Notes under the pieces: generated by a model | Told to the model about the DNA's origin: nothing | Databases searched by the model: none | What the model saw: the letters and a program-made list of their open reading frames with translations, nothing else | Made by a program: the position numbers and the translations under genes | Part shown: positions 8,201 through 64,000 of the stretch, in pieces | Position numbering within the stretch: the stretch's first letter is position 1 | Layout of the letters: each line of letters begins with the position of its first letter | NCBI RefSeq assembly: GCF_964355755.1 | Contig: NC_092674.1 | Location: 15,996,001 to 16,060,000, forward strand | Source of the DNA: Antedon mediterranea | Taxonomy: Eukaryota > Animalia > Echinodermata | DNA length: 64,000 nucleotides | Direction of reading: 5' to 3'

Positions 8201-11200
8201 TTACAGTTCACTACTAGTCCTAGATTTAGGTATGGAACGCCGTTTACGCAAGTTTAGGCGATGTTAAAATTGCATCAATGTAATTAAAATTACGTTTGCG
8301 ATTATTATTCTAAGTGATATTTTATTGGGAAGTGTTCTGCATTTATTCAAATAATTACAATCCTAATTGGTATAATTAATACATTATTTACATCTTTTGA
8401 AACTAACTTCCGCAAAAAAGTGGGCCGTTTCGGCCTAAGAAGGAAGACGTTTTAGACAGCTTGCAACATGGGTAGAAGTATATGAGGGTCCTAACGGGAT
8501 ACAGATAGCCCACAGTTACTCAATAACTCGGCTATCAGGGTTTCACTCGATTTAAAACAAAAGGTCTTTTCAGTTCTCCCTATGTAATTTTATATACTAT
8601 TCCCAACAATATATTCTGATTCTTTATGGCGTATATTTAATTTGATCTTTATTAATTTGCAGTATAATTTTTGCTACTGCACCTTCACACGCTCGATCCG
8701 AAACTTAGTTGAAACCTGGAAGTTGCAAGGTGAACCTGTGGACTCACCGTGAACCCGGAAATTAATTCTACAGTGCACAGTTGAAAATCTACTGATGAAA
8801 TCAGAAATTTTGTTTCAAAACCCTTCATAATATATTCCGAAGATAGAAATATGGAACAATATCGTAATAGTGAAAACTAATGTTATCAAATCTACGTTTC
8901 GTGGTACATCTGACATAGATCAGGTAGGTATCCAAGGCGGAGATTTGTTACAAAGTTTTTCCATTGTGCTCGCCTATGTCAGAATTAACCATAATTTATA
9001 TATAGATATATCTGATCATTAGTTTTTTGGACCACTTTTTGCCAAAGACACACAGTATATTAAGCAATTATTTTACAACAAAAATGAATCTGAATTTTTA
9101 ATAACTCACTGTTCCTGAAACGTGTGGCAAGCATGAGTAATTGTTCTGAACATCAGCTAAGATCTCTGTTGTACTCTGTGAACAAGTTCATGACAATAAT
9201 TACAAATAAAGAAAACAGTGAATAAATTAAACAAACATTGATTGATACACAGTGGAATACCCAATTTGACTATTTTTTGCTTTAAATTACAGATTTTTTC
9301 AGGTAAATAAACTTTTTTTTTAATCCAATTTTTTGATAACTAATATGTGACATTAAAATGGCATATTCAACAAAAAATGTTAAGAATTACAATACATCTT
9401 TAAGTAATCCTTCAAATACACCACCCTCTGTTATCATTAGAATTAGTACCTTAAAATGTAAATACAATAAAAGGGAATAAAATTAGAGACCCAATAAATA
9501 ACAACACCTTATTTAGAGGATGATGAGCATGATAAACCTGGTCCAAGATTGAGTAAAATACTTGTGTTTGCATTTCATAAGCTGAAAACATCTTCTTTGA
9601 GGAACATAAGTTAGAAATCATTTCTTCTGGTAAAGTCTAAAATAAAAAATGTCAGTCTGTTCATTTGATTTATTCACTTTAATCCAAAACACCTATAACA
9701 CCTATATAAGTGTATCAGAAAAAAAATATTGTGGAAGGTTTTTTTTTTATTTACATTATTTCAATATGCTGTTGGACATTATTTGTAGACCAGCCTCTAA
9801 GTCCCAGTCTTTTTTTAGGAATCATATGGTGTACTTTATAGTTTTTCTTCTCCATGCAAATCATTAAATAATATACAGTAGCAACTAATATCAACAATTG
9901 AAGGAATTTATGAAAAAAAAACCTATTTACTTCATGTGTTTTATAATGTTTAGCAAATTTCTTGAGTATACGATAATCATTGGCAAAGAACTCCATTAAT
10001 ATTGAAGGCACTTCTGCGAAATCTGTAGCACATCGAGTACCTGTTACATGCTGAAACTTGGTTCTGGCTAGCATGGCTGAAATAAATATTTTTAAAAATA
10101 TTTCATATGGAATATACAACCGGTTGTAATTATGTGAACTTAATAACCAAGACAATATTTATATGGGGCTATAGTAAAAACCTACTGTATTGGACATTAA
10201 CATTTTGTAAACACTTTGAGATTGTGTGTGACAAAATTGCTCTACTCCACTACCAAAATCTGAGAACAGTATATTATAAACTGTTATATATATATTTGGG
10301 CGAATTTTTCTCATTCTCACAGATTTCCTCATCTTTATCGTTTCAAATTAATTAATTAAATTTCAGTATATCACCGGGCGGTTTAGAATTAATGTTCAAT
10401 GAGGAAAATCTGTGAGAATGAGAAAAAGTTGTCCCAACCGAGACTCGAACTCGGACCGCCTGCTATATATATATTCCATTGATAAAGGGCTAGCGTTGCC
10501 CAAATACTCTGCTAACTTTTCTGGCTGTTTTACTTTATCGTTTTGATTTAGCTTTTTGCTTTTTTTTTGTATCTCCATTGAGTCCAGCCACTGATACTCA
10601 TAGCATTGTCATTTTTTCAGTATCTTGCCTTTGGATTTATATATTAAATATAATTTATAGGTCCATGGTTTAATATTGAGGAACAAAATGTTGCTTTGTA
10701 CAGCAAGCCATGAAGTGTGTATTATTATTATGTAGTAAGTTTATTTTCACTTTGTGCTCAATGGAAAGGATCTAAGAGATCAGAATGAGTCTGATTTCAT
10801 CAAAATATTCTTTATTTCTGTAGAAAAAATAATAAAGTATAAAATACTACATTTACAATGAATAGCATGGCCAAACTCATGGAATAGGTTTTCCAACATC
10901 TGAAAGAAAAACAATTGTAACTTATAAAATAATAGTTTTATCGTTTCACTATAAATTGCTAAATTAAACGATTTATAACCGTATTCTCAACATATATTAT
11001 ATGTGTGAACATATGAGGCACTCAAACTTACAATCTAGAAGCGACGAAAACAATAATTGTTGATATTTATTTTTATAAACAGCATTTAATAAGTTTTAAC
11101 ATGAGGGTTGTTTATTAAAATTGTTATATTTTGTTCCCAGTTATTAATAAAAACATATGAATTGCATATAGCTCAAGAAATCTTTATTTTTAGGAATTCA

Positions 11201-20200: not shown

Positions 20201-23200
20201 TTCAAAATAGGAGGTGCACAATTTCACATAAATGCCCACATGTTGACAAAGTTATGAAATGTTATGTTTACACGTTTTTGAATTACGCGTGACACAAAAA
20301 TGACAGAAAGAAAGAAGAATACAGAAAAAAAAGATGATGAAACAGGACAGTTACAAGGAGTTATCCGCTGAATGCGGATAACTAAAAAATAAAGATTTCA
20401 TACAATAACAATAGGTGATCATTTAGATTCCAAATGATCACCTAATAACAAGAGGCAAGTCATGATTCAACGTTTCGATCTTTATCTGATCATCATCAGG
20501 AAGAAACAATAATTCCAAAGGCAGACAATTATAACTACAGTCTATTCATAATTATGTAAATGAGATATAAACAATTAGCCATGCAGTGTGTTAGAAAGAA
20601 AATTTGTTAGGAGTAGTGTCTATATGTTAGTGAAGGAAGACATATTAAAATTGAAATTGTATTTAACTAATAAATGCATTAAAAGTAGACAATTTCCAAC
20701 ACATTTTTAGCTCTCTATTATAGTTTCTCTTTTGCTGCTCCATAGAAACACAGAAATTATTATTCTTTCACTTCAACATTCATTATGCGAACAGGGTGCA
20801 AGAAACATGTCATGTAAAAGCATCAATTTAAAGGATTTATTTGTTAATTTTTTATGCGATTGAACTTCATAAATGTACTTATGAGACCTAATTCAGAGGT
20901 GTGCTATTCATGATTACAAGTTAGTTAACGAATTTGGAGCTGAAATTTAGCGCAAGAATTGATATGTTTATAAAAGGAATCTGGAATCAATATTGTTGAA
21001 GAAACACTTACAAGTTCACTGTGATGATCTGAATGTAATGAACTAATCATAACATTATTACCATCAACTGTGAAACCGTTGCGGATATGTTCTGGAAGCT
21101 GATTTTTGTGTAAAGCTGTTGGCATCTGGGTCCCTTGCATGAATTGACTACCAAGAAGTAGAATATCTTCATTCAGTTTTACAGCTTCTAATCTCTATTT
21201 ATGATAAATTTATTTTATAAAAAATTGTTTATAACAAAAAGATATGTGATATAGATAATTTAAACAAAATTTCACTGGCAAGAAATTGTTGGAAGTATGC
21301 ATTGATTACCAATTATCAGAAAAAGTTATAGTAGAAACACAGCTTACGTCACGGTATTTGTACTCTAGATATATCCAGGTAGCAGTATTTGTTTGTAGTG
21401 TGCAGTAGGTATGCAAGATTACTTAGGTTTGTAATGAATATCATACAGCATGAATGAGTATACAGTGCAAATGAGGGGGATGTATAATATACAGAAAAAC
21501 ATTACCATGGATTGAAATAGACATACTGTAGATTATACAAGATGATGCTTTAATAAAAAAACCTTTTATAGTTCATTAGTTAGTTTCAATAATGATTCAC
21601 CTTTGTTTCATCTAAGTGTATTCCACTTTGCTCAAAATCAAACAGGAACAACTGAGCAACTTTTCTTGATTCTTCATCCATTGAGTCCATGGCGTCTTTG
21701 CAATCTAACAACCTTTTAATTGACTGGTGTAATTCAACATTTGTATTTAACCTTGATAAGATTATAAATAAACTTGTTTTATTTCTCATTGCACCATTTC
21801 ATGCCGAATAACAGTATTTGAATATATATTCTGTTAGAGCTAATATTTACATTGTGAACAATTTAACACCAAAATGAACTCAATATGTCCAGTAAATCCA
21901 GAGATATAGCATGTTTGTATGAAAAAAGCGGCCATTTTGTTTACACAAATTGCTTTGCAAACAAATTCTGATGATATCGAGAATCAAAATCCATAAAAGA
22001 AAAACTATAGAAAACATTGCAAGGTTAAACTCCTTGGCTGCTGGACTAATTATATTATTATTATTATCACTAGGAGCATTTTCAAAATGACACTAGGGAC
22101 TTTTCGATTTGAGTGAACATGCACAAAGCTCTTGTCCACAGGTTGTAGACTGGTTTACAGATATATATGGTGCGCCAAGCTGTCATTTATTCAAGCAATA
22201 GAGATATCTTAGTTTTTAATAGAGATATCTTAGTTTTAAATAAAGATATCTTAGTTTTAAATAGACATATCTTAGTTTAAATAGAGATATCTCTGTTAAA
22301 AAATAAGATATCTCTAATTAAAACTAAGATATCTTAGTTTTTAATAGAGATATCTCTGTTAATAGAGATATCTCTAATAATACAGATATCTTAGTTTTGT
22401 TTCCTGTTGCAAAGTATGAAGGGAAGGGTATATTTGTGAACATGGTGGGAAGTGTGCCATATAGAATGGAAGATTGTCCCATTAGGGACATCCCAAGGTG
22501 TTTATAGTTGTTGGTTTCTAGATCAGACAGGTATAAGCTACACTGCTACAACTAGTATTGTTAGTATATTATAAAACGGAAAATAAAATTGTTGCGGAGA
22601 GAACCGATATTGTACTGTATTAATTTTGTGGAGTTTCAAATTGTAATGATACATTTAAAACATGCATCATTAAAAGGCAGATCCCGGCACAGATCCAAGG
22701 GATGTGGGCTCTTATACCGAGCATTTGGAAAGTTGAAAAATCTAGTAAAAAGAAGTGAAAAGGGACACCCATCGACATCACAAACGAACAAATCTCAAAC
22801 TAGTCTTTTTTCAAGAATGAAGAGATTTATACATATCGGTCGAAAACAAAAAATAAGGTTTAATACTGTTCTACGACACTCACAATAAAATCGAATTTCT
22901 GTAATATTTTTGGAGAAACCATTCTCCGTCCTCAGCGGAAGTTGACTGTCTGACGACTGATTGACCCCCTACTTCTAGACGCAGATGGCGTCCTACTAGG
23001 TGTTTCTAGTAGAGAGTCATAGACTTTTGAATCAGTGCTCACTAAAGGCTTGAACTATGCTATTTCACCGCGATCTATTCCGGTAGAGGATTTTGTTGTT
23101 TCAACGGAAGTGGTGACCGCCTTCATCAGCAGGAGAAAGAGGAATTACGACCTAAGGTAATCAATATTCTCAGGCATGCCATTCCTCCAAGTAGCAGTAT

Positions 23201-26200
23201 TACTCGTAATGAAAAACACGCATTAAATGTTTTAAAAAAGGACAATAACATAGTTGTTCTGCCAGCTGACAAAGGGAAAATAACTGTTGTTTAGACTCTG
23301 ACAAATATGAGGAAAAAGTCAATGCTTTGCTAAGTGACAGCAACACCTATTCTAAGCTGAGCAAAGACCCTACCAACACTTATAGGAATCGTTTGCTTAA
23401 GCTTCTCAAGGAACTGAAAGAGAAAGGATCCATCAATCAATATTTGTATGATAAACTAAGACCAATTGCTTACGTGGTCCCGTGTATATATAGGTTACCG
23501 AAAGTTTATAAAAACTATATTCCACTTAGACCCATAGTGTCGAGTATTGGTTCTGTTTCTTACAACTTAGCTTGGTTTGTTGCGGACATTTTATCAACTC
23601 CTGTCGGCAAATCCACCCAACATATTTTAAACTCGCAGGACTTTGTTTCCAAGTTGAAAGACATTTGATTATCGGAAACTGACGTACAAACATCATACGA
23701 CGTTACTGCCTTGTTTAAAAGTGTACCTGTAGCAGTAGTTAAAGATCTTTTGGAAGAAGAGGACATATTTAAACACGGAAGAAGTTGTGAGATTACTTGA
23801 ATTTTTTTTAATCACCACATATTTTAAATTTAGAGACCAATTATACCAAAAAGATTATGGTTGCGCTATGGGATCTCCTGTTAGTCCAATCATCGCGAAC
23901 ATGTATATGGAAGCTCTAAAATCTCAAAAAGTGGTTCGAAAGTGTGGTTTTGGTACGTGGATGATACTCAAGTGATTATCGACAAATCCAAAGTTCAAGA
24001 ATTTACTTATCATATTAAAAGCCAGAATTCACACATAAAGTTCACCAACGATCCTGAAAAAGACGGACAGCTGCCTTTTCTGGATACGCTTGTGAAAAGA
24101 AAATCAGATGGGAGGTTAGACGTCAGTGTGTATAGAAAACCAACCCACACTGACCATCTGGCTTTTGACTCCATCACCCACTAGAGCACAAACTTAGTGT
24201 GATTAGGACACTTTTTCATCGAGCTGATACTGTTGTCACACAACAAGTTGATAAAGACAATGAAATTAAACATGTTAAATCGGCATTAAAACGCTGTGGA
24301 TACGCAGATTGGAGTTTTAAATGTGCCACGGTAAAGAAACATCAGACACCTCGGAATTCAAATCCAGATCTACATCTAGTACTAGAAAAATCCTGGTGGT
24401 GATTCCTTTTGTTAAAGGTATATCCGAGCAACTTAAACGGGTTTGTGGACAATACGGCAGACACTTTGTCAAATGCTTGTTGCTCCTAAGGACAAAGTAT
24501 CCATTGAGGACAAATCAGGAGTAGTTTATCGTCTTCCTTGTAAAAGCTGTAACAAAGTGTAAGTAGGCGAAACAAAGAGAACTTTGAGGAAACGCATCAA
24601 AGAACATACTGCAATAACCCCCTCCAATCATTGCTGAACACATTAAAACCACAGGCCATGAACTTGATTTTAACGTCAAGGTGTTTATGCCGAGAGGACA
24701 AATTAATTCCCAGGAAAATACGGGAGGCTATTTATATTAAGAGAGAATCCAGTCCAACACCCGCTGAGGACAAAGAATGGTTTCTCCGAAAATATTACGG
24801 AGATTAGATTTTATTGTGAGTGTCGTAGAACAGTATTAAACCTTATTTTAATAGTCTTTTTTCCCCTTTCCGATTTAATAGTAAAATTAATGTACAAAAT
24901 ATAGACGGTCCAATATAATATATAATCGGTTTCATTGCAATGAGCATCGATGTGTTCATATTTAAATTTATTTTCGTATTACAAACTTCGAGATAACAAT
25001 TATTATCATTTACATCTTCCACTCCTCCCTACTGACTGCACCTGCATTAACACATGGCTTATAAACAATTTTCTATTACTGCGGACCATTGAAATTGAAC
25101 TTCAAGTTTGTTTTACCAAGATCGGCATTATCCGGCAAGCTATTTCACAAAAACGTATTCAAAATTATACATAGAAACTGCTTTCATCCATAATACGGTA
25201 GTGATCAAATACTGCACCATGGGTTTTTTTTCTCTTGTTTCAGTTAGAATGCATGGAAACATGTTTATGTGCTCATTATAATATGTGCTCATTATAATAT
25301 GTGCTCATTATAATATGTGCTCATTATAATATGTGCTCATTATAATATGTGCTCATTATAATATGTGCTCATTATAATATGTGCTCATTATAATATGTGC
25401 TCATTATAAGCCTCATCACTTTTTTCTCAAACATCCTGTTTCTGCCTCTGTTCCCTTTTGTTTCATTATAACCTCTTATATTACAACTGGAACAGTGATA
25501 GATATTGCATTACAATATGTGAATTTGACCATACTTCCCTACTTTGGTCAGTTTGCACCTACTTTGGCCAGTTTGCACCTACTTTGGCCATCTTGCCCTA
25601 CTTTGGTCAGTTTGCACCTACTTTGGCCATCTTGCCCTACTTTGGTCAGTTTGCACCTACTTTGGCCATCTTGCCCTACTTTGGTCAGCAGATGGAAAAT
25701 CGTATTACCCATAAAACACTAAACTGGAAACAAAACTAAGATATCTCTATTAATAGAGATATCTTTATTAATAGAGATATCTTAGTTTTTAATAGAGATA
25801 TCTTAGTTTTTAATAGAGATATCTTAGTTTTAAATAGATATATCTATATCAATAGAGATATCTCAATTAAAAATTAAGATATCTTAGTTTTTAATAGAGA
25901 TATCTTAGTTTTAAGTAGAGATATCTCTATTAATAGAGATAACTTTAAAACTAAGATATCTTTATTTCTGAATAAATGACAGCTTGGCGCGCCATATATA
26001 TGAATGTTTCAGTGAACTTATGACGTAATGACCTTACGTCCACTCCTACTCAAGCAAAAGGCATAATACAACTGAGTAAGTTCTCAAATTTGGCAGTTGA
26101 CGTGCCAGTCGACACACACTATGTCATATAGTATCAGTCGTCGACATGGTGGACATGCAAATCAAAAAGTCCCTAATATTTGTCTACCTTTCTACCAGTG

Positions 26201-27506: not shown

Positions 27507-28639
27507 AATTTGATCAAGTTTCTTCTATACCTGGAATAAAAGTAAAAGATTCTCAAAATTACAAACAAACAGGAGTTATCTATGTAGCTAGCAATAAATG
27601 TTGTAATTTGTTACTATCCTTTCATTTCAGGGGCAGATTTAGGAGGGGGTGCCGCACCGGCCACGCCTTGTAATATATATATTATATATTATGCACCCAT
27701 TTACATACGATTTTATCAACGATTTTACAGGAAAAGGGGGTACAAATCTACATTAAAAATCGTTGAAATCTTCAATTTCTTTTTTTAAGTTGAACCGAGT
27801 TCAATTTCAACGTTACGATCGGTAAAACTGACTGACCAATCAAATAGTTCATAAATTACGTCATCACAGTTTTTGAAAAAATACGTACGCATTGACAATT
27901 CTTGATTTTTTACAATGCGACAATGTTTTTTGTACTCTGATTGTAGTCTGATATCTAAAAATAACAGGTGTAAGTAAAACTAAATTTTAATATAAAAAAA
28001 ATTTAATTTAATGTTTGTCTTTTAGTATAAAGCCTAGATTAAGATATCACCGAAAACATGTCCTAGGCCGGCTGGGTTGAAGCATCAAAACCTTAAAATG
28101 TTTCAATTTTCAAACGGGCCCGGCTGCGCGTGACCGGCCTTGGGTTTGCAAAACTTAACGTCAATGTGTCCCAGCAACGTCGAAAGAACCAAGAAACCAT
28201 TAATGATCGCGTAAAAAATGTGTAAAAATTTGCGATGGGAAAACAAGATTTAGGCTATTGGCGCAAAAAAAAAACAGTTCCGTATTAAATTAAATTTTGT
28301 TTGTTTTTGTTACATGGCAAAATTAAATTTTGCCAAGTATAGTATTTACTTTGTTTGTATATATGTACAGTATGTATATGTGTATGTTATGTAAGTACCG
28401 TACTGACACGGGTATAAGCCCACCCTTCTTGAACATGAATTCACATCAAGTTTAGTGGGGGGGAGCTTATACCCGAGAATCCAAAAATGCAGATCGTCAA
28501 AAACATCTCCTTTGGCCATCTCCCTTGCAGCGGAGCAGGGTCAGTAGGTGGGGCCTAGGTACTTTAGTTTACAGTGGATTGATATCGCAATTGCAGATGT
28601 CTTTTGTGACTGTGTTGTTGAATTTACCATCGAGTCAAA

Positions 28640-28910
28640 TATCTGAGCGGTTAAGGCATGGGCGCCGTTCACCTAAGGAGCCAATGGTATCGGCATGAGT
28701 TTGAGGCCGACTCGCTCCTAGTTCCGGTGGTGGAATGGAACAAGTCCTCTTGAGTTTGAGGCCGACTCGCTCCTAGTTCCGGTGGTGGAATGGAAGTCCT
28801 CTTAGATAAAGACTATAAAGCGTATGTTCACTGTACATAATTTACCTGTTTGCACTTGAAAGAAGTCCTATGTACACAGTTTATCTGTGTGCATTTTAAA
28901 GAACCCAGTT
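28640..28910 (+). mobile_element. Diverged tRNA-derived SINE with an internal duplication
   Basis: Similar to the reverse complement of 45705-46014 (gataaagactataa...gcacttgaaagaa...ttaaagaaccc); a segment of about 50 bp is duplicated at 28698-28800. Confidence 0.65.
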
Positions 28911-30261
28911 TATTTTTGTTTTATTCATTTTCGACAGTATATACAAACATATAAAAAACAGAGACATTTTTTCATATAACTAAAAAATACGGAACTTTCG
29001 CCAATGAGCTATACTCAACACGATTATGAGATCATGAATATAAAAATATATGAATATATAATACATAAATATACCATGCCTGAGAGAGACAAAGCAATAT
29101 TAAAAAGCTGTCACAGGTAAATATCTGATTAATTTGCCATTGGTAATCCTTGGCCACATGTGCCTAAATACACAAAATAAAAACAATCTCTGTATAAATA
29201 ATGAAGGATGAAGTTTTAAGATTTCTATGGCTAATCCTGCTTTTAGTTGGATTGTCCGAATGTGGAAGAAAAAGAAAGTTATCGGCAATGGACGACGATA
29301 CTTAAAAAATCATAGTGAAACTCATCAAAGGGTCATTCCACGTACCATGCGCAAACAGAACCGTTACAAAAAGATCCGCAATAACACGATATACAGTAAC
29401 AGGTATAAAGAAAGATTAACTCTACAGGGTGAACCTCCAGAAATATATCTAGATGGAGAAAAGGTAGTGAAGAAATCACAGGTACAAGATATTGTTATGG
29501 ACGAATATTTAAAAGCGAAGGGATCAGGAGAAAGGCGTATATCATAGACTTAAGAAAAAGTTTTCCAGTACTGTATTTCAGAATTAGCCGTTCACAACAT
29601 ATTAACAAAATGCACAATACATCGGCGCATGAATGTAAACAAACAAAGTAACATATATACCTATTACAGCTAAACACGTAATAGAAAGAATTCAGATACA
29701 GATCTTCTCAAAATGAGAACCGCAGCTACGTACAAGAAAAAATCTTTCAGATGCATATTAACTGTAATTGATGTCTTTAGCCGGTATACATGGGTACGTC
29801 GTATTGAAACAAAATCAAGTCGAAATGTGGCACACCACTTGTCATCAATATTTGACGTATTTGGTACTCCACTATATGTACAGCATCAAGGGACTGAATT
29901 TAAAGGAAAAGTAAGAGACCTGTTAAATTATAGGAGAATTAAAGATATAATGAGTGCCCCATACCACCCTGAATCCCAGGGAAAGGTAGAGAAATCTCAT
30001 CGAACTCTGCAATGAAAGATGTTATTTGACGTTATTTCTAAAAAATATGGTGCAAATTGGATAGGTAAACTTCCCGAATATGCAAAGGTAATATTGACGA
30101 ACCTAAAGAAGTATATCAAGTATGTTTTCTTTGGTCGATGCTCGGATGATGCATGCAGTAAAAAAAACAGTAAAACAAGAAATATACAGGAATGGCGTAG
30201 ACAAGTGGCACTCATCAGAAAACAGGCTTCCGCCGTAACAAAACGGGCAAATAAAAGACTA

Positions 30262-30442
30262 AAGCGTGGTTCCCACTAGCGACGCGACGCAAGGACGTAA
30301 CGCAACGCAAGTGAATTGACCAATCACAAGCGATGGCTTATTCGCTTGTGATTGCTAACTGTCTATAACTTCGCTTGTCATTGGTTAAAACGCTTGCGTT
30401 GCGTTTACGTCCTTGCGTTACGTTCTAGTGGGAACCAAGCTT
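30262..30442. mobile_element. Palindromic MITE (Harbinger-like) inserted in the integrase ORF
   Basis: aagcgtggttcccactag ... ctagtgggaaccaagctt; nearly the whole element folds back. Confidence 0.85.
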
Positions 30443-30625
30443 TCGAGTGCGCCAGCAAAGGATTCTTAGGATACCAAGATATCATGTCGGGGACAAGGTT
30501 CTTATTTGATTAGCAAGTAAGAGATCAAGAGTGACAAACAGAATGACAATATTGCCTGGCAGAATTACTCAAAGAAAATTAAGTATACACAAATATCGAG
30601 TTGCCTCTAAACATCCCCGAATGAA

Positions 30626-30899
30626 TAAAGCCTGGTTTCCATTAAAATTGCTACATTGTTTCCATTAAAATTGCTACACGCGCAGATGTCGCCGACGCAA
30701 TCGGGAAGGCTCCCCGATTCATCGCAGTCAAATCGGCAAAGTTCAACCATGTTCAACTTTGCCGATTTTGTCGGAGATGAATCGTATAGGCGTACCAAAG
30801 AATATTTAGCGCTCGCGCACTAGATCCCCGATAAATTCTAGCATTTCCATAGAATCGCTACGCTCTGTCGTGTAGCAATTTTATGGAAACCAGGCTTTA
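30626..30899. mobile_element. Harbinger-like MITE with TAA/TTA flanks inserted in the same ORF
   Basis: taaagcctggtttccattaaaattgctac ... gtagcaattttatggaaaccaggcttta. Confidence 0.85.
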
Positions 30900-33800
30900 G
30901 AAAACGGAAAAGTGGTTTAATGTGGTGAACATAACTGCAGATACTTTGTCTAATCAAAACAAACGTGAACAAGTTTCTTTTTTAAAAAGTAAACACCATA
31001 ACAAATATTATATAATTTCAACGCACTTTTTACGGACTTTCCGTACGCCTTAATCCGACGGGAGATGGTAATTGCCAGTTTAGTGCTGTATCTGATCAAT
31101 TGATAACAATGGGAATCTATCGATACCATATTACTCTAAGACAGGAAGTTGTTCATTACCTAGAAAACAACTCACACTTTGCGAACGAGAGGGAATGGTC
31201 GGCATTTATTACAGAAATGCCAGAAGATTGTCTTAACCGCATTTCAAGAAATGGAACTTATGGTGACCAAATAACCCTACAGGCAATTGCCAATATATTT
31301 AACATTTAGATATTGGTCATAAGTTCTTTAAGTGGAGGAAAACGTTGATTTCACCGGATGATGCCAACATTTTCACGTTCAATTTGCCATACCGGTATAT
31401 TGTGCTAGGACATCTACCAGAAGGCAACGGTGAGCACTACCTGTCGCTTACAAACAATAATGAGGAAATACTTAATGTCATTTATAACAGTTCCCAGATT
31501 GTTTTTGAAGGAGACATGGATCATAGGCCTATTGTCGTAGATGAGACATCAGATCGAACAGAATTTCTATGTTTTTTTTCTATGTTTTTTTCTTAAAACA
31601 AATAACAATAAATGATACTTGACTTGATATTGTATACAGACGAAAGCATAATAGATAAAGATACAGACGAAGTAAACAATGAAGAAACTGAAAGAGCAAC
31701 CGATAAAGATAATACTCATCAAGGAATAATCAAAATACATTGATCGAGAAGTAAACGATGACAGCACTGGAGAATGTCTAAACGATGTAAATATGCCTAC
31801 AGACAACGAAGTAAATGAGGAAGATGTAGAAAACATATCTCTATTTGACAGACTACCCAACGAAATTCTCATCATGATTCTTACATTTGCAATGACCAAT
31901 GATGTTGCAAGTAGACAGTTTCTGCCATGTGTGAACAGAAGGTTCAAGGCTGCAGCAGATAAAGCCATGCGTTACCTTGATGAGCTGCTTGTCTACGTCA
32001 ACCCAGGCGTAGAACAATATCTAATATTACCAACCCAGGGAAGCTGTTGCTGATAAAGACCGCTGGAAAGCACAGTGGACTTGAAATTAACATTTGATCA
32101 CTAATTAGTGTCTCAATTTGGTATTTTGCTATGGTGATATTACTATTGAAAGGGAGAAAGTCTACCAGAATGGTATACTATTGAACCTATCTTTTGGAGG
32201 AAAGGAAGAAAAAATACTATATAGAAAAAGCTAAATTAAAAAAAAAACTAAAAAAACCGTTATATAATTATGTTCAGTTTACATTAACCATCAGAAGTAT
32301 ATCAAAAGATATCCTTCGATGACCCTAATTTATTTTAACCGCATAAGAAAAAGTAACTTTATCATGAAATATAACTTGTATGAAGTGTTTTTTTTTATAT
32401 CTTCTAAATGAAATAATATTTTTATTTGTTTTATATTATAATAAGATGACATCGGGTATGAAGCGTCTCACATACAAACAAAGCCAAAATAATATCTTGG
32501 ACTTGCACAGTGTATGGACTCTAACCTTACGGTTTTCATTAAATATATCATTCCACGCTATCATCCTAATTATCTAATTTTCTAACTTTTGCATTCCTCT
32601 TTTTTCATCTTATCCATTTTGGTCTTGGTGAAAAGGGAGGACATTTTATATTCCTCCTCTGAGTCTATAGCGTCTCTACCCGAACACAGACACGATTTAA
32701 TAAGTACGATTTTAATGACTGTTTACTGTCTTCTATTACCATGTTTTATATATATATTTTAATTAACGTCTTCTTGTAAATGAAAGCAAATATGGTTTTA
32801 TATTGAAATCAATCATCTTTTTATGTAAATATAGTATTTTAACTACTTTTAACACTGTAAGAATCGTAGTAATATAGGCCTACAATAGAAAGGGAAAATA
32901 TGCTTAAAAATATTTAATTCAAAAATGTAGGCCTACATTTGTGACAATTAAATTATATAGGCCTACTGTACTGTATATAAAACAGAGAATAAAAGTGGGA
33001 CGAACCAACACAAAACAAAAAAGAGAAGGTAAATTTACCTTAACCATCCATTTAAAGTAAACATTACAGTTGCTTTGTTTGTTATAAAATGTTAGTTTAT
33101 ATAATTCTTTTAGTTGTGTTTTTGGATTGTGAATGAGTTTTTAATAAATAAAATTAAATAACTGATTTTGTATTCTTACTTTCATCATAAGCAATTACAT
33201 AACTATATAAATTATAATTTGAGTAGACGGTACCGATTAAAACATTCATATATAGATTTAATTTTTTTTTTAACAGAAAAAAGAAGGAAGCCTGAAAAGA
33301 TTCAAACTAGAAACAGTGCAAACAACGATGGGCAAAAACTAATCGGTCAACTCGGCCACAATAAAGTATGGAACGCAAAAAGTGTTTTGTCTATTATTAT
33401 TTAATATTATTTTATTGTGGCTGTGCCTATTCAGGCTTTAAAAATGAAGAAATAAAAAATACTGATCTCATTGCCGATATGAATATGAAATGCTATATGA
33501 TTAGCATCCCGACTGTACATTATGTTTTCCTGTGCCCTATTTTAATAATGCTGAAAAGGATAGCCACACATTCGGGCAAGTACCTGACATGCTTCATAAT
33601 AGCATGTGTACTGTCTATGCAGTTTGAATGAAAGAAAAATAAGACATTCTAAAGCTCTGTGTACACTATCAAACTTTATGTGACAAAAAATGTGATGTGC
33701 CCATATATGGACATGTCAATGCCAATTATCACTACCATTGGGCACATCACGTAAATGGTGAAATCATCCTTATTTTTGGTGCTAAACGTATTATTGACTA

Positions 33801-34109
33801 AATATCAATATTTGTTAAAAAGTCTTATTCTTAAGTAAAAAATGTGAAAACATTTTATTTTCACTTTTTCCGTTGCATACTTTAACGTGGCCGAGTTGAC
33901 TTGGGGCCAACTTTACTTGGGGCCGACGTGACTTTAGCCACTTTGGGGACAACTTTGATCGAAATCATCAATAAAATACAACAGTATAACTAGTTATAAT
34001 ATTGAACATTTTAGATTTATTAGACTCCTTTTCCTATTGTTATTTCTACTCTGAAAGATCCAGTATGAACCAAAAATATAAAATGGAGTAGGAGTTTGGC
34101 TAAAGAAAT

Positions 34110-34299
34110 GATTTGCACATTTGTAGAATACCTTTTGTACATTTAACGTCAAAACTGATCGTTTTTACATTTAACGGTTTGATGTTTGCACATTAGTGGG
34201 TTATGAATTTTGACAGATTAGCACATTTGAGGGTGCCATGTTTGCACAAATGTGGTTGTTTGCACAAATGTGACTTTTTGCACATTTTACGGCTCAACA
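34110..34299 (+). mobile_element. Probable right terminus of the Ginger-like element
   Basis: About six copies of (tt)tgcaca(t/a)ttg(t/a)g-like motifs ending ...ttttacggctcAACA. TGT...ACA ends are typical of Ginger transposons. No left TIR was found. Confidence 0.5.
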
Positions 34300-40904: not shown

Positions 40905-43900
40905 TACAGATACAGATACAGATAACTTTTATTGTCCAAATGAACTGGAAATTGCATTTGCTCACTTATCACATAAAAATATCGTATAAAAATATCATAT
41001 AAAAATAAAGTATAAAATTTAGAATAACAATATAAAAATACACAATGATTAAGATAGTAGGCCTACATCATAAAATTACAGTTCATAAATATTTAAGTTA
41101 AAAATAAAGATCATTACAAAATGGTTTAAAAATTGTCTTATATTTCATTATTAATTATATATTATATTATTAGTATTATTATTGTTATTATAGTTACCTC
41201 TTAAAGTCATCGTTAAATTTGTTTAATCCCAGCTGGGAGAAACGAATTTGAGTATCGACCCGTCCGCGCCACCACCGGCCTCAGTCTACCACTTCTACCA
41301 ATGTGGTAGCGAAGAAGATCCGAATGGCTTTCCTCCTCCATGATCGCCTGTAAACCATTTTTCAATCGTTCTCCGTAGTGACAATCGTAGACTGAGTCCG
41401 CCGTTAGCGCCGACGAGCCAATCACTCCCAATGCCCTTTCTAACACCTTACATATGCGGCCCTTATCTCCCTTGTTTATATTCCCACCCCAGCCTGATGA
41501 ATAAAACATAGTAAGTATCTCTTCCCTAACCCTAAAAACTTTCATTTTCCTCAAACAGTACAGTCTAGTATTTAATTTTTTAATTAGTTGATCTACATGC
41601 TCTCCCCATGATAAATTATTGTCATATACGTTACCCCAGATACTTATATGTTTTAACGATTTCTACCTCATGTCCTTTAATCTACTGGACAGGCTCAAGT
41701 TTTTGCTACATTAAGTTCCAGGAAATTTTCATCACAGTATTTCGTAAACCTAACTATTTAAGATTTGAAATTTGTATCGTCATCCTCTTTTATTCAACCT
41801 ATCATTGCAGAATCGTCTGCAAATTTAATTACTGGACAGTCCGGGAATCTAAGTTGGAAATCCGACGTATACAATGTGAACAGAAACGGTGCAAGTACAG
41901 TACCTTGTGGTGCTCCCGTATTTGTCCGAATAATGTCCGATCTGACATTTTGATTTAGCCTAACAAACTGGAGACGTCCAACGAGGAAGTTAAAAACGAA
42001 CGAAATTAGTAAATTGGGGATATTCATGCCGAACAACTTATTAATTAAAATGTGTGGTTGGATGGTATTAAAAGCTGAACTAAAGTCAAAGTACATAATC
42101 CAAACAGACGGGGATGTTCTCCAATTGTTAAGATGGGCATACATTTTTTCATTTTTTTGTATATTAATGCGTCTTCAGTGTTCCTGTTTCTCCGATAACC
42201 GAACTGATGTGGGTCCAAAAAATTGCAACTAATGGTTTCAGGCTTTTTAGAACAATCTTTTTACAAACTTTCATTGGGACGGATGTTAGCGCAACAGGTC
42301 TAAGATCGTTATAACACTGTATATTTTGTCGTTTAGGGATTGGGATGATGCATGACGTTTTCCAAGATTCCGGCAAGGTTTGTGTTTCAAAAATCAAGTT
42401 AAAAATATATACAAAAATATCTGCCAATTGGGTTGCACATAATTTAAGAACTTTGGGTAGAATTTGGTCTGATCCAGTTGATTTGGATGCTTTCAGACCT
42501 TTAAAGTGGCTGGTAACTTCATCCGAATTTGTCTTAAGGTCAAAACCACTTTCATCTGGTAAGGCCAACCTACTTTTGATTAAGATCTGTTCATCAGAAA
42601 AATTATAGTGATCAAACCTATTAAAGAAAGTATTTAATTCATTAGCATATTGCTTAGTCAAATTAGACACAATTCCACTTCCTTGTGGCGATTTTGCATA
42701 TCCGCTCATTTTCCTCATTCCCCTCCAAACCTTACTCATATCATTACCTACACAATTATTTTCTATTTCACGTTTGTACTTTAGTTTACTTTTACGTATT
42801 ACTCGTTTAAGTTCCTTTTGGATTTGATTTAGTTCATTTACGTCACCTCGGTCGAAGGCCTGTCTCTTTTTCTTAATAACATCTGTAACCTCCCCATTTA
42901 TCCATGGTTTACGGTTTCCGTAGATTTTAACTTTCCTTTTTGGTATTACATTTTCAGTACAAAAGTTAATATATGCACTAACCGCTTCCGTTACCTCGTC
43001 TGACCCGTTTGAATTTTCCGTAAAAACACTCCAGTCCGTAGTTTCAAATTCGCATTTCAGCTGTTCTATTGCATCTTGAGTCCACTTCTTAACAGTAATT
43101 ACCCTGGGTTTCTGCCGTTGTACTAATGGATGATACTTGGGTTGTAGTATAATTAAATTATGGTCAGATTTACCAAGTTTCGGCAATTTTGTTGATAAAC
43201 ATGCGTGTTTTACGTTTGAATAACATACGTCAAGGGTAACAGATTCCCACGTGCTGCACTTCATATGTTAGTAATAGTAAACGCTACTCTTTTTTAGGGT
43301 ACAATGATTAAAGTCTCCATTTATTACAATATATGCGTCAGGGGAAGCCGTTTCAATTTCCGCTATAACTACGGTTAGTTCTCTTTGTACTTCCTTGGCC
43401 AGATTTTTGTTTGGTATGTATACAACCACTAAAACAACATGTGAAAATTCCCTAGGGATGTAGAACGGACGTATAGAGTACCATTATTTCAACGTTAGGC
43501 GAGCACCTGTTTTTCTTTAGATGCACATTGCTTGGGTGACAATACCTTTCGCTTATATATGCCATAACACCGCCTCCTCTATTTTTTCCGGATTCGACAG
43601 TTCTATCACCTCTGAATAATGTAAACCCATCAATCCTAAAATGTTCGTCACTTTTCTCTTTACTTAACCATGTTTCCGTAAAGGCCATCACACTAACAGA
43701 TCTATATTCATGCAAATGCATAGGCCTATTTGCATTTAATCCATCCATTTTATTTACAATTGAGCGTGCGTTTCCCATAATGATTGTAGGCAAATATGGT
43801 CTACATTTCCTAGCGCGGAACCGTTTTCTAACTCCACTGGCCCTACCTCTTTTTCGCCTTCGAATATCGAAAGGTATGTCAGGCCATTTTCCAGCACCTG
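40905..43900 (-). mobile_element. Near full-length Rex1/Babar-clade LINE (APE endonuclease plus RT), inactivated
   Basis: EN: GNARSIVNK, FTETWL, GGGV, GDFN, SDHN. RT: DLRPVALTS, DFSSAFNTIQP, GAPQGTVLAP, KFADD. 3' end caatttcc...ggacaataaa followed by (TATCTG)n. Confidence 0.93.
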
Positions 43901-44437
43901 TTATTTTCGCAATAATGTTAACATAAAACTATCTTATTAATTTAATTTAAATAGCTTACATATATTATCAACTTCGACAAACAATTGTTTCATACATTAT
44001 TAAACAAAAGTGCAACCAACAAGTTCCTTGCTATAATTTATAGTTTATATAGTGTAGGGGTATCGCGTTCGTTTAAGGGAGTTTAAGGGTGGGGAGTAGG
44101 GTCGAATAAATAATTGGTATACGATGTTCATGTACCAGAACCTCGATCCCCGCATAAAACAAGACATTGCGAGGTTCTTTGGAGTCACTGGATACAAAAT
44201 TACAGTAGACTGTTGTGTAAAAATGGGTGTTTGTTTACGTTGAGGAAAGAGTGTATTTTTTGGTATGGGGGTATGATGTTATATACCATGCTATTATAGG
44301 AGTTTTTTTAAACAGAAATGTTAAGCCTTTGATTTTGGAATTATTTCCAGCTTCAATAAAACTTAAAACTCGTTTTTTTAATGAAATCTTGTTGAATTCA
44401 CATTTTGAAATACAAACATCATGAAAGTAAAAAAACA

Positions 44438-45190
44438 CTATTGGTTGTCTGCTGCAGCATCTGGAATAGTTCTGCTGTTTCGCCGCCGATGCTTGCGTGC
44501 CCATCGCCAGATCCGTCGAAGCCACGGCACACGAATTCGCCAACGGCGGCGGCGAGGTTGGGCAGTAGTACCTTCCTGCTGATTACTGCCTACTGTTGCG
44601 TTATCACCATCGATGGCTGGCGTCGTGGTCTCGTCACAATGTGCCATTACATCTCCTTGGTGTTGATTACTGCCTGCTGTTGCGTTATCATCATCAATGG
44701 TTGGCGGCGTGGTCTCGTCACAATGTGCCATTACAGCTCCTTGGTTTTGATTACTGCCTACTGTTGCGTTATCACCATCGATGGCTGGCGTCGTGGTCTC
44801 GTCACAATGTGCCATTACATCTCCTTGGTTTTGATTACTGCCTACTGTTGCGTTATCACCATCGATAGCTGGCGTCGTGGTCTCGTCACAATGTGCCATT
44901 ACATCTCCTTGGTGTTGATTACTGCCTACTGTTGCGTTATCACCATCGATGGCTGGCGTCGTGGTCTCGTCACAATGTGCCATTACATCTCCTTGGTGTT
45001 GGTTGGTTGCTCCATCACCAGCACTATGATCCATTACTCTATTCCTATCTTCGCTTCCAACTAACTGTCGTCTAGTCAGCAACGCCTGTGACTCCTCATT
45101 TTGGCGAGAATACCCTACTTCTTGAACATCGTCTATACTATTAGCACGATTAAATTTACGTTGCCTGATTTCAACTATATGTATTCGCAT
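44438..45190 (-). CDS. Orphan ORF of 250 aa with five 28-aa acidic repeats and an Arg/Trp-rich tail
   Basis: The frame stays open for about 60 codons before and about 45 codons after an 84-bp tandem array; no recognisable domain. Confidence 0.4.
   Translation of the reverse strand: MRIHIVEIRQRKFNRANSIDDVQEVGYSRQNEESQALLTRRQLVGSEDRNRVMDHSAGDGATNQHQGDVMAHCDETTTPAIDGDNATVGSNQHQGDVMAHCDETTTPAIDGDNATVGSNQNQGDVMAHCDETTTPAIDGDNATVGSNQNQGAVMAHCDETTPPTIDDDNATAGSNQHQGDVMAHCDETTTPAIDGDNATVGSNQQEGTTAQPRRRRWRIRVPWLRRIWRWARKHRRRNSRTIPDAAADNQ
44579..45005. repeat. 84-bp tandem repeat, 5 copies
   Basis: gattactgcc recurs at 44581, 44665, 44749, 44833 and 44917. Confidence 0.97.
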
Positions 45191-45197
45191 AGCTGTG

Positions 45198-46097
45198 CTA
45201 ATTCTTCCTCCGCGCTTCGTGTTTCATTTTCATCCTTATTTCTTTTCTCAGAAAATATCTCTTTCTAATAAAACCGTCATCTGGGAAAATCTGTAAATTC
45301 TTCGCATTTTCATCTCGTTTTCTTGATTTCAAACTCATTTCGTATGCGTGTGCACACATCCGACGTCTGTTTTCATAATATTGTATTTTTTCATCTATCG
45401 TTCCTCCGGGGAAAGCAGCAGCCGGTGGTTCTTGTATATTTGTAACTCGTCTATCGGCTAAGTCCACGTAATCGGACATCAGATCAGTAAACCGTTGAAT
45501 CTCAGAACGGGTACTTGCTAGCAAGTTTCTGATTGTTCCAGCATCACAATCATTTGTTGAATTTACTGAAACTTGTTTAGGTCTTCTGAACGATGGCTGT
45601 AATTCGAGAGAGTGCTCTCGGTTGTTCGGTTCATGTCTACGGCGGGTCCCAGACTTATGCACAGGACCTTAATAAAAAAGAAATGAAGATGATTTATTGA
45701 ATTGAAATATATATTTATACTGGGTAACCTCTTCAGTCAAAGACTGGTCTCCCAGAGGGCCCAGTTAGTGATCAGTGGCTGTGATGTACTAATACACCGG
45801 GGTAACCCCCTCTCGTCTCGAAAGATGTACTAGGTTCTTTAAAGTGCACACGAGCTAGATGTGTACACTGGACCTACGATTTATAGTCCTTATCCGAGAA
45901 GACTCGTTCTACCACCAGAACCATGGAGTGAGTGAGCCTCGAACCCCTGCCGATGTTATGGCTACGTTATTACGGTTCCACTGTCTTAACTGCTCGGCCA
46001 CTCACTCACTCACTAAATCAATTTAGGTAAAATCAATGCAATTACAGTATTATATAATAAAAATATTACATAAGTCAATTATCATACCATTTGGCAT
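45198..46097 (-). CDS. Candidate spliced orphan ORF (MPNG|PVHKSG..., about 160 aa)
   Basis: ATG CCA AAT G|gtatga at 46097-46088 joins in phase to the acceptor ttcttttttattaag| at 45668; the intron contains a SINE. Confidence 0.4.
45705..46014 (-). mobile_element. tRNA-derived SINE with a Deu/Nin-like central domain
   Basis: A box tggccgagcagtt, B box ggttcgaggct, core gataaggactataaatcgtaggtcc...ttaaagaacc...gagggggttaccccggtg, and a LINE-like 3' tail. Confidence 0.8.
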
Positions 46098-51901: not shown

Positions 51902-52361
51902 CTTTTATATTATTATTATATCTAGTGTCTTAAAAAGGAAGGATCCCTACTCCTCCTCTCCAATCCGATCCACAGGAGTTCTTCTACGACGCATGTGTAG
52001 ATATCTTCTACGTCACTTAAAAAAAACTGTAAATAAAATGAGCGAGTAGTGTATGCAATCGTTCATATGGTTCATAAATGTCACTATCACTACTGTTTAG
52101 TACTGTATTAATACAATTTGGATTAGAACATTTACCAGAAAGGTAGAAAAAACATCAAACCTTTGAGAATTCTCAACCAGAATTAGCAGCCGGAAATGTC
52201 TTTCTCATTTTTGGAGCAGCTATAATAATACAACAGCGCAAAACGTCACAAACAAGCTGGGCGAATCGACCTGGCTGGCGGCTAGTACTAACTAGGCCTA
52301 GCCTAGGCGTTTTTTTTTTTCGTATACAGTATTTCTAAGTACACGAGGAAAAGATTAGGAG

Positions 52362-55300
52362 ATGTTTTTGTTAAATGTGTTCTTGCTCCCTGTGTTACTA
52401 CACAGTTGTGTTGTTTTTGTTATAGGAATTGATTTTATTAGGCAAAACAATGACACTCTTCTTACTAGTAGGCCTAGCCTTATTAATTTGAGGGCTTCAC
52501 CTTCGCCGCCCCTACCTATTATTAGCATTACTAATATTAAAAAGTATACTAAACAGAGAGACCACAATTTAGGCCTACATGCAATTGACAAGAAGAAGGA
52601 TCCAGCAGTGGGCCTAGATGAGGGCGTAATTTCTGGTAATGTTTCATTTTCTTCAAAATATCACACCAAAGTGATTCATGAACACTTCAAAACTAAAAGG
52701 AGTCCCATAATACTAGGTAAAAATAAAAGTAAACAAATAAAGGGAATGGAGGATAGAACTAGTAGTAGTAGTAGGGCATATGCTACAGGAGATGTGATTA
52801 TTGGAGGACTTTTTCCGGTGCATCTAACTGATGATGATGAAATTCAATGTGGGAAGATTCAAATACGTTCTGGCTTGTGGACAGAAAGTATGATTTATGC
52901 AATAAAAGTTGTTAATAACAATGATAGTGTGTTGCCAAGTACTACTCTTGGGTATGACATTCGTGATGATTGTTCAGATACAAGCCGAGCATTACAGGTG
53001 AGTAGCCGTAGCTAGCTGCCAGCATGTACACAAATGTTATATGGAGGAGATTATTTGCAAAAAAGTACTATTTAGTATAATATGATGTTAAATAGTATGT
53101 ACTAATGCATGTGACCTATTCAATTCTACCCCGCCTTCATTTTACTGTACCTTTGTTTCAACAAACTGTCACTTTCCTCTTTTCCAATGACCATAATTTC
53201 CGTCTTTTTATGACGTACCAAATCCAAGGTGGGTGAATCACAGAAGAAAAACGAATTTATAAATAAATGGGATTTATAGCAGGCCACAATTAATACTAGA
53301 ATTAGAAAATGTCAACCAATTTGGTTACTCAAATCCAGTGTCAAAACATGTACTGTTATTCTTCTAGCAACTGCTCTAGCTCTTCTAGCCATCATCGTGT
53401 GTGTGACTACTGTACTGTATAAAAAAATCAAATAAACTTTTCTCTGTCAGACAATCGGGATCAGAAAATAAGGTCCCGATCATCTTAAGTGTTTGGCCTG
53501 AGTATCGTCTGATGTGTTCAAAATCATATTGATCCCGATTGTGCCATTTAAACAATCCATGTATACCTGGTAAATTCCACCACTACCCTACTCTGTGGAG
53601 GGCATGTTATGCCACTGGTTTTTGCGTTTAATACTTGTGTATACTGTAAGTGTTTCAAAAAGAAAATAATAATATTACAGGTCAGGGGCTCTTCTCTGTA
53701 TCATTGATAATGATTTTGCATAATGTCAAAACATATTTTCTCTCAATTTAGCAAACACTAGATTTTATAGATGCAAATTCTGATAAAGGTTCTGAAACAT
53801 GTTCAAATGAAGTAAAAACTGTGGGAGTTGTTGGAACAGGCAAGAGTTCTACATCAAAAGTGGTTTCTGATCTGCTCAGTAAGTTAATAGATTATAAGGG
53901 CTTCAGATACGAGTCATATAAAAAAAAATTATGTTTTAAACTAATCTTTTATGTAAAATATGATAGGTACACAAGTTTAGTTTATTTTCAGCTGGCTAAA
54001 AATAAACTATGAAATAGTCACTATGACGAATTATAGGTTATATGCATTGATTTAAATAAAGATAATAGATTTTTAAAAGATATATTGATTGATTGATTTT
54101 CTCAGAATCTTTAATTATTTATAATATATGATAGGATCTTGCTAACACAAATACAATAGCCGGTATCACAATCCGATCACAGATCCCTATGCGATGTCAT
54201 AAACCACATTTGTTACATAATAATAAAGACATAAGTTACTTTTTATCTAGATTTCATTATAAATCATGTGTATAATCTATACACTAAGAAATAAATTGAA
54301 CAAACAATACGGATAATAAAAAAAATCTTATTTCGTTTCCCAAGGGGAGACTCGATCTCGGTACCTTGAATGCCATAGACACGAGCACAGACCACCGAGC
54401 CATACACAACTCACTACTACAAGTTGTAGAAGAATTCCTCCGTGTATTTACTATGCAGTAACCACTTTGGTGGAGATAGATTATTATTACATATCACAAT
54501 GAATTATAATTTTTTACTATGATAACATCTTTAATATATGAACATTTTAAGAAAGAAAGTTAATGTTAAGTTTGTTATTTTGGCCTAAGAAAATGCCCTA
54601 ATTTGTTTGATTGTCGGAATATAATTTTTTTAATTTAATATGCAATAAATGATGACTTAATTAACTTTTGTTCTCTTAATTTCATAATAAATCATACATA
54701 TGATACATTTACTTCAAGAAAATGAAATGAAAAATAGGTGTTCCCGAGCATTCTGATGATCTATATTAATTTTAAAATTTAATAATAATAATTGACGGAC
54801 AAAACAGTGCTATGGAAAGAATAAATAAATAAAGATCCTGACAGAATCAATATCAATAGGTTATATGCATGATAATGCATATACGGTAACCTAATAAAGA
54901 TTCTGACAGAATCAATAGGTTATACTGTATGCATGATAATGCATATAACCTAATATTTACCTTCACCAAGGATGTATATGTAAATCGATCACGTGTGTTT
55001 GTATGTTTGTTTGTTAGCAGGATTACTCAAAAAGTAATTACAAGATCATTCCCAAAATGAAAATACAGATACAGTAGATATGTGGTTAAGGACCATTCCA
55101 TTACCTTTTAGGGAATCCAGACCATGGTCCCAATTCTGGACCACTTTTTAAAATTATTTTCAGACTTGCTACAGTAGTGTTAAAAGATAGGACAGAAATT
55201 TCAAAAGCTGGTGAGCAGTAACAAGTAAACTAAAATTGCATTTTCTCGAGAACTACTTCTCCAAAAAACTTTATTTTTGTACAACAGGCAAGAGTTATAA

Positions 55301-63741: not shown

Positions 63742-64000
63742 GTAAGTGGTTCTTTATTTGTACTGTATGTCATTCTGTCTGCATCTGTATTATTGTCAAT
63801 TAAAAATGAAATGAACAATTAATTTGTTTTTTTTATAAAACTATATGATTTTTATACTTATTCTATGTTCCGAAAAATATTTTATAAAATATATTTCATT
63901 AAAATATTTTGCTGGTATTAAATTGATGGAAAAATATCACATTGAAAAAATACTGGTTAGAGGCCACTGCATTACAAAGTGATTTATGACCATCATTGTG

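Follow-up and report, generated by a model that had tools for sequence, protein, structure and literature searches.

Can a DNA transposase carry on one chain both a domain that removes ubiquitin and a domain that calls in a ubiquitin ligase? The question arises from a degraded open reading frame (ORF) in the echinoderm Antedon mediterranea, located in a 64,000-nucleotide stretch of assembly GCF_964355755.1 (contig NC_092674.1, positions 15,996,001 to 16,060,000, forward strand), to which we refer as the window; all coordinates below are positions within it. A sequence-only reading of this DNA had proposed that the ORF belongs to a transposon and fuses a Gypsy-type DDE integrase, an OTU protease and an F-box. 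We find that the window copy is a dead, 5'-truncated Ginger2-type DNA transposon, and that the fusion of DDE integrase, OTU and a divergent F-box is a real trait of a transposon family that is widespread in marine animals.

The reading path and its relatives

By translation, Pfam searches and frameshift-aware alignment we recovered an integrase core (rve), an OTU domain, an acidic linker, the F-box and a tail domain in this order on the plus strand, which bears out the proposed succession of integrase, OTU, acidic spacer, F-box and tryptophan-rich end. Frameshift-aware alignment of the Lytechinus pictus protein P0003 to the window placed its residue 1 at 29208 and its residue 645 at 31554, spanning the sites of two miniature inverted-repeat transposable elements (MITEs). 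The end of P0003 gave a weak match (E 0.097) to the window F-box DNA, in a shifted frame. A profile of the C-terminal family sequences, built without the window row and aligned in a frameshift-aware manner, matched at 31853-32206 with a score of 76, as against a maximum of 21.7 in 30 shuffles, and the tail domain scored 60.9 versus a shuffle maximum of 26.6. The expectation that all three domains would score with hidden Markov models held for rve (29674-30012, 33.7 bits, Pfam cut-off 32.6) and for OTU (31016-31306, 44.3 bits, cut-off 23.3), but not for the F-box, which falls under the cut-off in the window and in most relatives.

The ORF, all of it on the plus strand, starts at 29208 with a leader that looks like a signal peptide (29208..29287; a methionine, a hydrophobic stretch, small residues and a basic RKRK), begins at the position of P0003 residue 1 and contains a frameshift near 29217. 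The transposase N-terminal region (29288..29700) occupies the place of the H2C2 finger, has no zinc ligands, and holds several frameshifts and one stop. Then come the DDE core (29701..30140; Pfam rve), in which an Asp is deleted near 29886 and a stop stands at 30013, and a region past the core (30444..30945) that is split by the second MITE, has no GPY/F and is labelled SH3-like from its position and motif. The OTU cysteine protease domain (31034..31455; Pfam OTU) has its catalytic D at 31064, its Cys at 31073 and its His motif, GEHYLS, at 31435, with a stop at 31307 and a frameshift near 31340. An acidic, low-complexity and poorly conserved linker (31520..31835) leads to the divergent F-box (31841..31969, LPNEIL...VNRRF) and to a family-specific alpha/beta tail domain of about 75 amino acids (aa) (31970..32224; G-x-x-S-G, W-x-x-A-W and GWF-I-I-W-K), with two frameshifts and one stop. 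Three features had escaped the sequence-only reading: the ORF start with its hydrophobic leader, the absence of the second catalytic Asp near 29886, and an 81-nt insertion in the linker (31553-31633).

Decay is extensive, comprising about 12 frameshifts, 5 stops, the missing catalytic Asp, both MITEs and a 5' truncation. With that many frameshifts and stops and the second catalytic Asp deleted, the window copy is dead, as had been stated. Other copies cease to match the window at 29214-29222, and one of them continues for 287 nt without likeness to it; the 5' end and the left terminal inverted repeat (TIR) have therefore been lost from the window copy. The species itself holds a second copy that is about 94% alike.

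Is the arrangement peculiar to this locus? A search with the integrase core returned three Lytechinus proteins with rve and OTU, at 71-73% identity, and P0003 as query brought 55 proteins at E<=1e-20, whose sources are urchins, corals, a grouper and many further assemblies. In these relatives one ORF of about 800 aa runs through leader, DDE integrase, SH3-like region, OTU, acidic linker, F-box and 75-aa tail domain, so that the domain order to be sought in other invertebrates is present as single ORFs in sea urchins and corals, and also in fish. About 21 of the 55 proteins end in a complete, conserved module of roughly 120 aa after the acidic linker. A profile of this C-terminal module matches 648 clusters (50% identity) at E<=0.001; the module lies within 15 aa of the C-terminus in 132 of the 146 matches examined, and of the 31 representatives that reach 300 aa, 29 carry family sequence ahead of it.

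Linkage could also be followed in DNA. Metagenome contigs contain 170 stretches that encode relatives, and 80 were kept as loci, in 45 of which the module lies downstream on the same strand. Where a locus shows the OTU His motif and has at least 900 nt downstream of it, the F-box tail follows the OTU domain in 36 of 37 cases, and contigs of one organism, organism B, tie integrase to OTU and OTU to F-box. Given the linkage in these loci, in the organism B contigs and in full-length relatives, the fusion is a family trait, and the F-box is linked to the integrase in other copies, as the earlier reading required, including intact single ORFs that hold all parts.

The C-terminal module, the OTU domain and the leader

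The identity of the third domain is the critical point. An AlphaFold model of the C-terminal module opens with three helices (H10-23, H27-34 and H36-45), at a mean confidence (predicted local distance difference test, pLDDT) of 92.9. When the model was compared with 48,161 chains, ranks 1-10 were all F-boxes matched over residues 3-48, with Z-scores of 4.3-4.8 and the next, non-F-box, chain at 4.2. The ten include Skp2, FBXO42, COI1, FBH1, FBXL2, FBXL17 and FBXL5, and the Skp2 chain 1fs1_C matched with Z 4.8 and a root-mean-square deviation of 1.8 over 39 residues. Across 146 matches the core positions are conserved (L 93%, P 78%, E/D 84%, I 96%, L 78%, V 88%, F/W 94%). The ESM Atlas returned F-box clusters at scores of 0.90 or less, which we treat as a lead only.

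Several results weigh against an F-box. The window piece at 31844-31969 scores under both curated cut-offs (PF12937, 18.9 bits versus 24.3; PF00646, 17 bits versus 20.5), no Pfam F-box match at E<0.1 was obtained in 30 full-length relatives, and the cut-off was passed by 2 of 60 representatives. Among 22 tail segments, 9 match PF00646 and 6 match PF12937, the best at E 5e-4 and none shown above the cut-off. Among PDB sequences searched with a profile, the matches at E<=10 included no F-box protein and were weak and unrelated (MDA5 CARD, E 0.005), and Foldseek with the C-terminal model gave nothing at E<=0.001. The structural Z-scores stay below 5, a range that the tool calls common and that is modest even for so small a domain. 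Finally, L-N/S-x-D/E replaces L-P-x-E in 22 of 120 members, about a fifth. The proposed F-box is thus upheld by fold and residue conservation but not by Pfam scores, here or in most relatives. We conclude that a divergent F-box, with a predicted three-helix fold around an L-P-x-E-I-L core, is well supported by the model.

The 75-aa tail that follows is also confidently modelled (pLDDT 91.9), and three of its residues are nearly invariant in the 146 matches (W 97%, S 96%, G 95%). Searched alone, it had no Foldseek match at E<=0.001; the best VIA Z was 4.2, not a clear match, which does not show that the fold is new. No Pfam family was common to two of 23 tail members.

The OTU domain has OTUD5 and OTUD3 as its closest solved relatives. 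Its motif was found in 45 of the 55 proteins, and the catalytic Cys is present in 44 of these. Given the Pfam OTU match with catalytic Cys and His, it is a predicted deubiquitinase. Two relatives differ in their proteases: P0045 (946 aa) combines rve with both Ulp1 and OTU in a single chain, each above its Pfam cut-off, and P0054 carries rve and Ulp1. Ginger1 transposases are described in the accessible part of PMC2836005 as carrying one protease or the other, never both.

OTU, F-box and tail are under purifying selection. In three close family pairs, the F-box had ratios of nonsynonymous to synonymous rates (dN/dS) of 0.22, 0.31 and 0.28, and the tail had ratios of 0.16, 0.22 and 0.15; a single pair gave 0.06 for the DDE core and 0.34 for OTU. 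Six pairs had been chosen automatically, from which we dropped a duplicate (L010/L085) and two saturated, unrelated pairs (L022/L048 and L006/L044); pooled values with the dropped pairs included are 0.57 and 0.45.

At the other end of the protein, the leader, a hydrophobic N-terminus followed by a basic stretch, resembles, by eye, a cleavable signal peptide, and a secretion-type leader is unexpected for a nuclear enzyme. A methionine 18-45 residues upstream of the first domain together with an uncharged hydrophobic window was present in 16 of the 27 families but in 8 of 54 control frames (Fisher p 7e-5), and the urchin proteins P0001-P0004 have a leader of this type. The hydrophobic window alone has a high background in T-rich DNA (37 of 114 control frames), and dN/dS of the leader is 0.67 in one pair. 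Counted as a possible sign of ER passage, N-glycosylation sequons (N-x-S/T) occur at 0.79 of expectation in 59 dereplicated proteins, N-x-T at 1.01 and control motifs at 0.84-1.24; in a smaller set of nine proteins 20 sequons were observed versus 49 expected. The leader stands outside the explanation that we propose below; one possibility is that it directs the bulk of the protein into the endoplasmic reticulum (ER) and thereby limits the nuclear transposase.

Element anatomy, class and surroundings

What kind of element is this? At six loci, TIRs of about 160-300 bp could be paired; they have TGT...ACA ends and subterminal repeats, and they bound elements of 4.3-5.7 kb with one long ORF. One of these elements, L017, is complete: it measures 4.4 kb and has 236-bp TIRs that are 98% identical, an 886-codon ORF and a 5-bp target site duplication (TSD), CAGTC. 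At L012 a single flanking base fits a 5-bp TSD, and the four other paired-TIR loci have no clean TSD. The expected 4-bp TSD was not borne out, the sole clean case being 5 bp.

The likely right TIR of the window element, with subterminal repeats, lies at 34106..34299 on the minus strand and reads TGTTGAGCC... inward. The terminus ...CGGCTCAACA ends at 34299, with five TTTGCACA repeats at 34112-34277, and high read depth ends just past it in other runs, marking the edge of a high-depth repeat. By eye, 14 of its first 18 bases match the TIR of L012. Two rounds of read placement on the window yielded no contig joining the ORF to this terminus; we consider it likely that the two belong together. 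A search of the window for a matching left end came up empty even with 4 mismatches allowed in 20 bases, so of the TIR pair that had been predicted only the right terminus, with its subterminal repeats, is real here, and the left TIR is missing. The window end reads TGTTG, which fits the TGTNR form, as do L012 and L076; L017 reads TGTTC.

With respect to class, GP[YF] occurs in 1 of 55 relatives, where it lies within the linker, and the HHCC pattern in none of the 55. A core signature of D-V-F/Y-S-R and S/G-R-P-Y-x-P-x-S-Q-G-K is present in 50 and 49 of the 55, respectively. By eye, in the part of the PMC10045372 alignment available, the same signature occurs in 6 of 24 Ginger2 rows, all bivalve, and in none of 21 Ginger1 rows. 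The six are the Repbase entries Ginger2-1/2/3_CGi, Ginger2-1/2_CySi and Ginger2-2_TeGr (PMC10045372, Data S3). The integrase core therefore appears to group with Ginger2 and not Ginger1, a placement by eye and motif rather than by tree, within a comparison that had no Polinton rows. As the signature is common to these six entries, the lineage is already filed in Repbase as Ginger2; the entries are known here from their cores, and the main text of that study, as available, mentions neither OTU nor F-box. Ginger2 TSDs are 4 or 5 bp (Kojima and Bao 2023, PMC10045372), a length seen in our family at L017 alone, as one clean case.

The accessible part of PMC2836005 describes Ginger2/Tdd elements that resemble ours in their Gypsy-like DDE core, TGT termini, absence of GPY/F, TIRs of 160-300 bp and, for TDD-4/5, 5-bp TSDs, but they have the H2C2 whose ligands are absent here, and no OTU, F-box or leader is reported for them in that part. 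Since HHCC is absent from all 55 relatives, we place the family as a variant beside the Repbase bivalve entries and not as textbook Ginger2/Tdd.

Other classes fit less well. OTU and Ulp1 tails are reported for Ginger1 only in the accessible part of Bao, Kapitonov and Jurka (2010, PMC2836005), and Ginger1 shares with our family the DDE core with C-terminal OTU, the TIR-bounded form and the occurrence in marine animals. It differs by its YPYY, H2C2 and GPY/F motifs and 4-bp CCGG/CCGT TSD, and no F-box is reported for it there. Against Ginger1 stand the absence of GPY/F and H2C2 and the 5-bp CAGTC TSD (one case), and for it the C-terminal OTU; no YPYY motif was evident by eye, without a count, in the alignment of relatives. 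The earlier assignment to an OTU-bearing Ginger thus stands as to Ginger type and to DDE, OTU and F-box in one ORF, but the core is that of Ginger2, not Ginger1. IS3EU/GingerRoot elements (TA...TA ends, 6-bp TSD and a distinct core in the available part of PMC6839031) were rejected on the TGT ends, 5-bp TSD and by-eye differences in the core, and Polinton/Maverick elements (large, with PolB, ATPase and capsid genes and a 6-bp TSD) on the 4.3-5.7 kb size and single long ORF of the paired-TIR elements.

Both MITEs proposed to interrupt the ORF are present. The first (30261..30443), a very high-copy element that breaks the ORF, and the second (30627..30899), with TIRs of about 30 nt, are each self-inverted, and an organism B contig joins 29214-30259 to 30899-31162 without them; loose ends pile up at 30442-30443. 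Another organism B contig joins 31133-31552 straight to 31634-32181, so that 31553-31633 is a later insertion, and a contig of organism C also skips it.

Further high-copy repeats lie between the ORF and the right terminus (32434-32830, 33346-33940 and 33650-33715), among them an element with inverted repeats at 33346-33900 and, at 33650-33715, a short repeat of extreme abundance. A repeat resembling a short interspersed element stands just upstream of the truncation point (28600-28917), with a second copy on the opposite strand at 45821-45944. Elsewhere in the window, an element at 22161-26001 has 33-nt TIRs and AGATATCT subterminal repeats, and contains nested fragments (22850-24849) with 95-nt inverted ends that look like a Penelope-type reverse transcriptase element. 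Remnants of a reverse transcriptase and endonuclease of the long interspersed element type (41213-43928 on the minus strand, and 44396-45668) adjoin an ORF built on an 84-bp tandem repeat. By their translations, an exon-like ORF at 9751-10158 (minus strand) resembles mitochondrial intermediate peptidase, and exons at 52359-63822 (plus strand) resemble a class C G protein-coupled receptor of the metabotropic glutamate receptor type. Among the collections used, four viral-collection records of 1.8-2.5 Mb (L001-L004, around 480-1170) encode a eukaryotic Skp1, apparently with introns, a sign that host sequence may have been catalogued as viral.

A possible role for the fusion

The analysis shows how the domains are ordered and linked, how the mobile element is built, that its protein is conserved and that the model has an F-box fold; beyond this, we infer that the module would act as an adaptor for the Skp1-cullin-F-box (SCF) ubiquitin ligase. 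In active copies, the F-box of this single-ORF, Ginger2-type transposase likely recruits host SCF via Skp1, and OTU likely shields the protein from autoubiquitination, an account whose chances we consider evenly balanced. The transposase would bind the repeated subterminal motifs, cut at the TIRs and excise the element, which would reintegrate with a 5-bp duplication. The F-box would dock Skp1 and so recruit SCF, and the 75-aa tail, in the place that the substrate-binding domain takes in F-box proteins, would choose a host target for ubiquitination, for example a silencing, chromatin or repair factor. With its long, flexible acidic linker, OTU would be able to reach ubiquitin attached to the chain of which it is a part. 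An F-box protein is ubiquitinated by the SCF to which it belongs, and partner deubiquitinases reverse this (PMC9263569, in the part available); by analogy with the partners of FBXW7, OTU may counter the autoubiquitination that destabilises F-box proteins. This account has to bear the clean TSD at only one of six paired-TIR loci, and the leader, since a signal peptide, if used, would carry cytosolic and nuclear domains away from SCF and from DNA.

The evidence may be read in other ways. The structural and residue evidence for the F-box would apply equally if the transposase were itself the target of SCF, its ubiquitination clearing away the post-integration complex and allowing the gaps to be repaired, with OTU delaying destruction until integration is done. 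Ubiquitination of F-box proteins in their own SCF (PMC9263569) and a proposal that OTU or Ulp1 borne by transposable elements acts around post-transposition repair (PMC2836005), both from partial texts, are in keeping with such a timer. We hold it unlikely, however, since pure self-destruction would not need the distinct and strongly conserved tail (W 97%, S 96%, G 95%; dN/dS 0.15-0.22) that follows the F-box. The F-box fold might instead pack with the tail into one binder of DNA, chromatin or a transposase subunit, or sequester Skp1 without an active ligase; most members lie under the Pfam cut-off, Asn replaces Pro in 18% of matches, and the tail is basic and always adjoins the F-box. This too we regard as somewhat unlikely, in that conservation falls on the positions of the F-box consensus in general, and each of the ten best fold matches is an F-box that binds Skp1.

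The leader opens a route that is compatible with any of these: the protein may leave the cell, or enter the ER, and do its work in a different cell or once it is back in the cytosol, in which case OTU and F-box would help it to withstand or to exploit ER-associated degradation. The in-frame excess over control frames and the leaders of P0001-P0004 speak for it; we nevertheless judge it improbable, as 37 of 114 control frames are hydrophobic, the one-pair leader dN/dS is 0.67 and 11 of 27 families did not score. We are as doubtful of a combined version, a ubiquitin-editing transposase whose own SCF, formed through F-box and tail, would destroy a host restriction factor while OTU protects in cis, and whose cleavable signal peptide would give secretory passage, possibly from soma to germ line, before action on DNA. 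That the F-box is an unrelated host gene fragment beside a Ginger remnant, or the locus a long terminal repeat (LTR) retrotransposon or a domesticated gene, might be suggested by the window copy alone, which is fragmented, lacks a left TIR and is spanned by no contig. Intact single ORFs hold all parts, however, linkage extends to 36 of 37 loci, and L017 is complete with 236-bp TIRs, a 5-bp TSD and an 886-codon ORF beside which the 4.4-kb element has no room for a reverse transcriptase; these observations refute chance adjacency, an LTR element and a domesticated gene, which we find barely credible.

Deubiquitinases and ligases are coupled elsewhere. As an analogy only, and with an architecture that is not homologous, the host protein A20/TNFAIP3 couples a deubiquitinase to a ligase module, and USP28 or USP9X with FBXW7 offers a similar, equally non-homologous case among host proteins (PMC9263569, available part). 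Closer to transposons, partial texts describe Caenorhabditis F-box genes with a Tc1/mariner-derived helix-turn-helix (PMC12951971), which join a transposon part to a ubiquitin domain but are host genes keeping only the helix-turn-helix, and Helitrons with OTU or FBA_3 (PMC11417382), which carry ubiquitin-system domains but in a rolling-circle element and with an F-box-associated domain rather than an F-box. The claim that no transposon with this triple fusion had been described stands in that we found no paper describing a DDE-OTU-F-box transposase, in a search outside of which lay Repbase, Dfam, most subscription journals and the FASTA supplements of Bao 2010; it has to be narrowed in that the integrase lineage, by eye, is already in Repbase as Ginger2. 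What appears to be new is the F-box and tail on widespread Ginger2-type transposons, with the F-box function predicted from the model.

Transposases with OTU or Ulp1 have been known since 2010. If the proposed role is true, the F-box turns a cut-and-paste enzyme into one that actively recruits a host E3 ligase, as viruses and bacterial effectors do. The conserved leader raises the separate question of where in the cell the transposase resides. Apparently intact elements such as L017 exist, and the substrate, if identified, would point to a host factor whose removal or modification DNA transposons of animals require.

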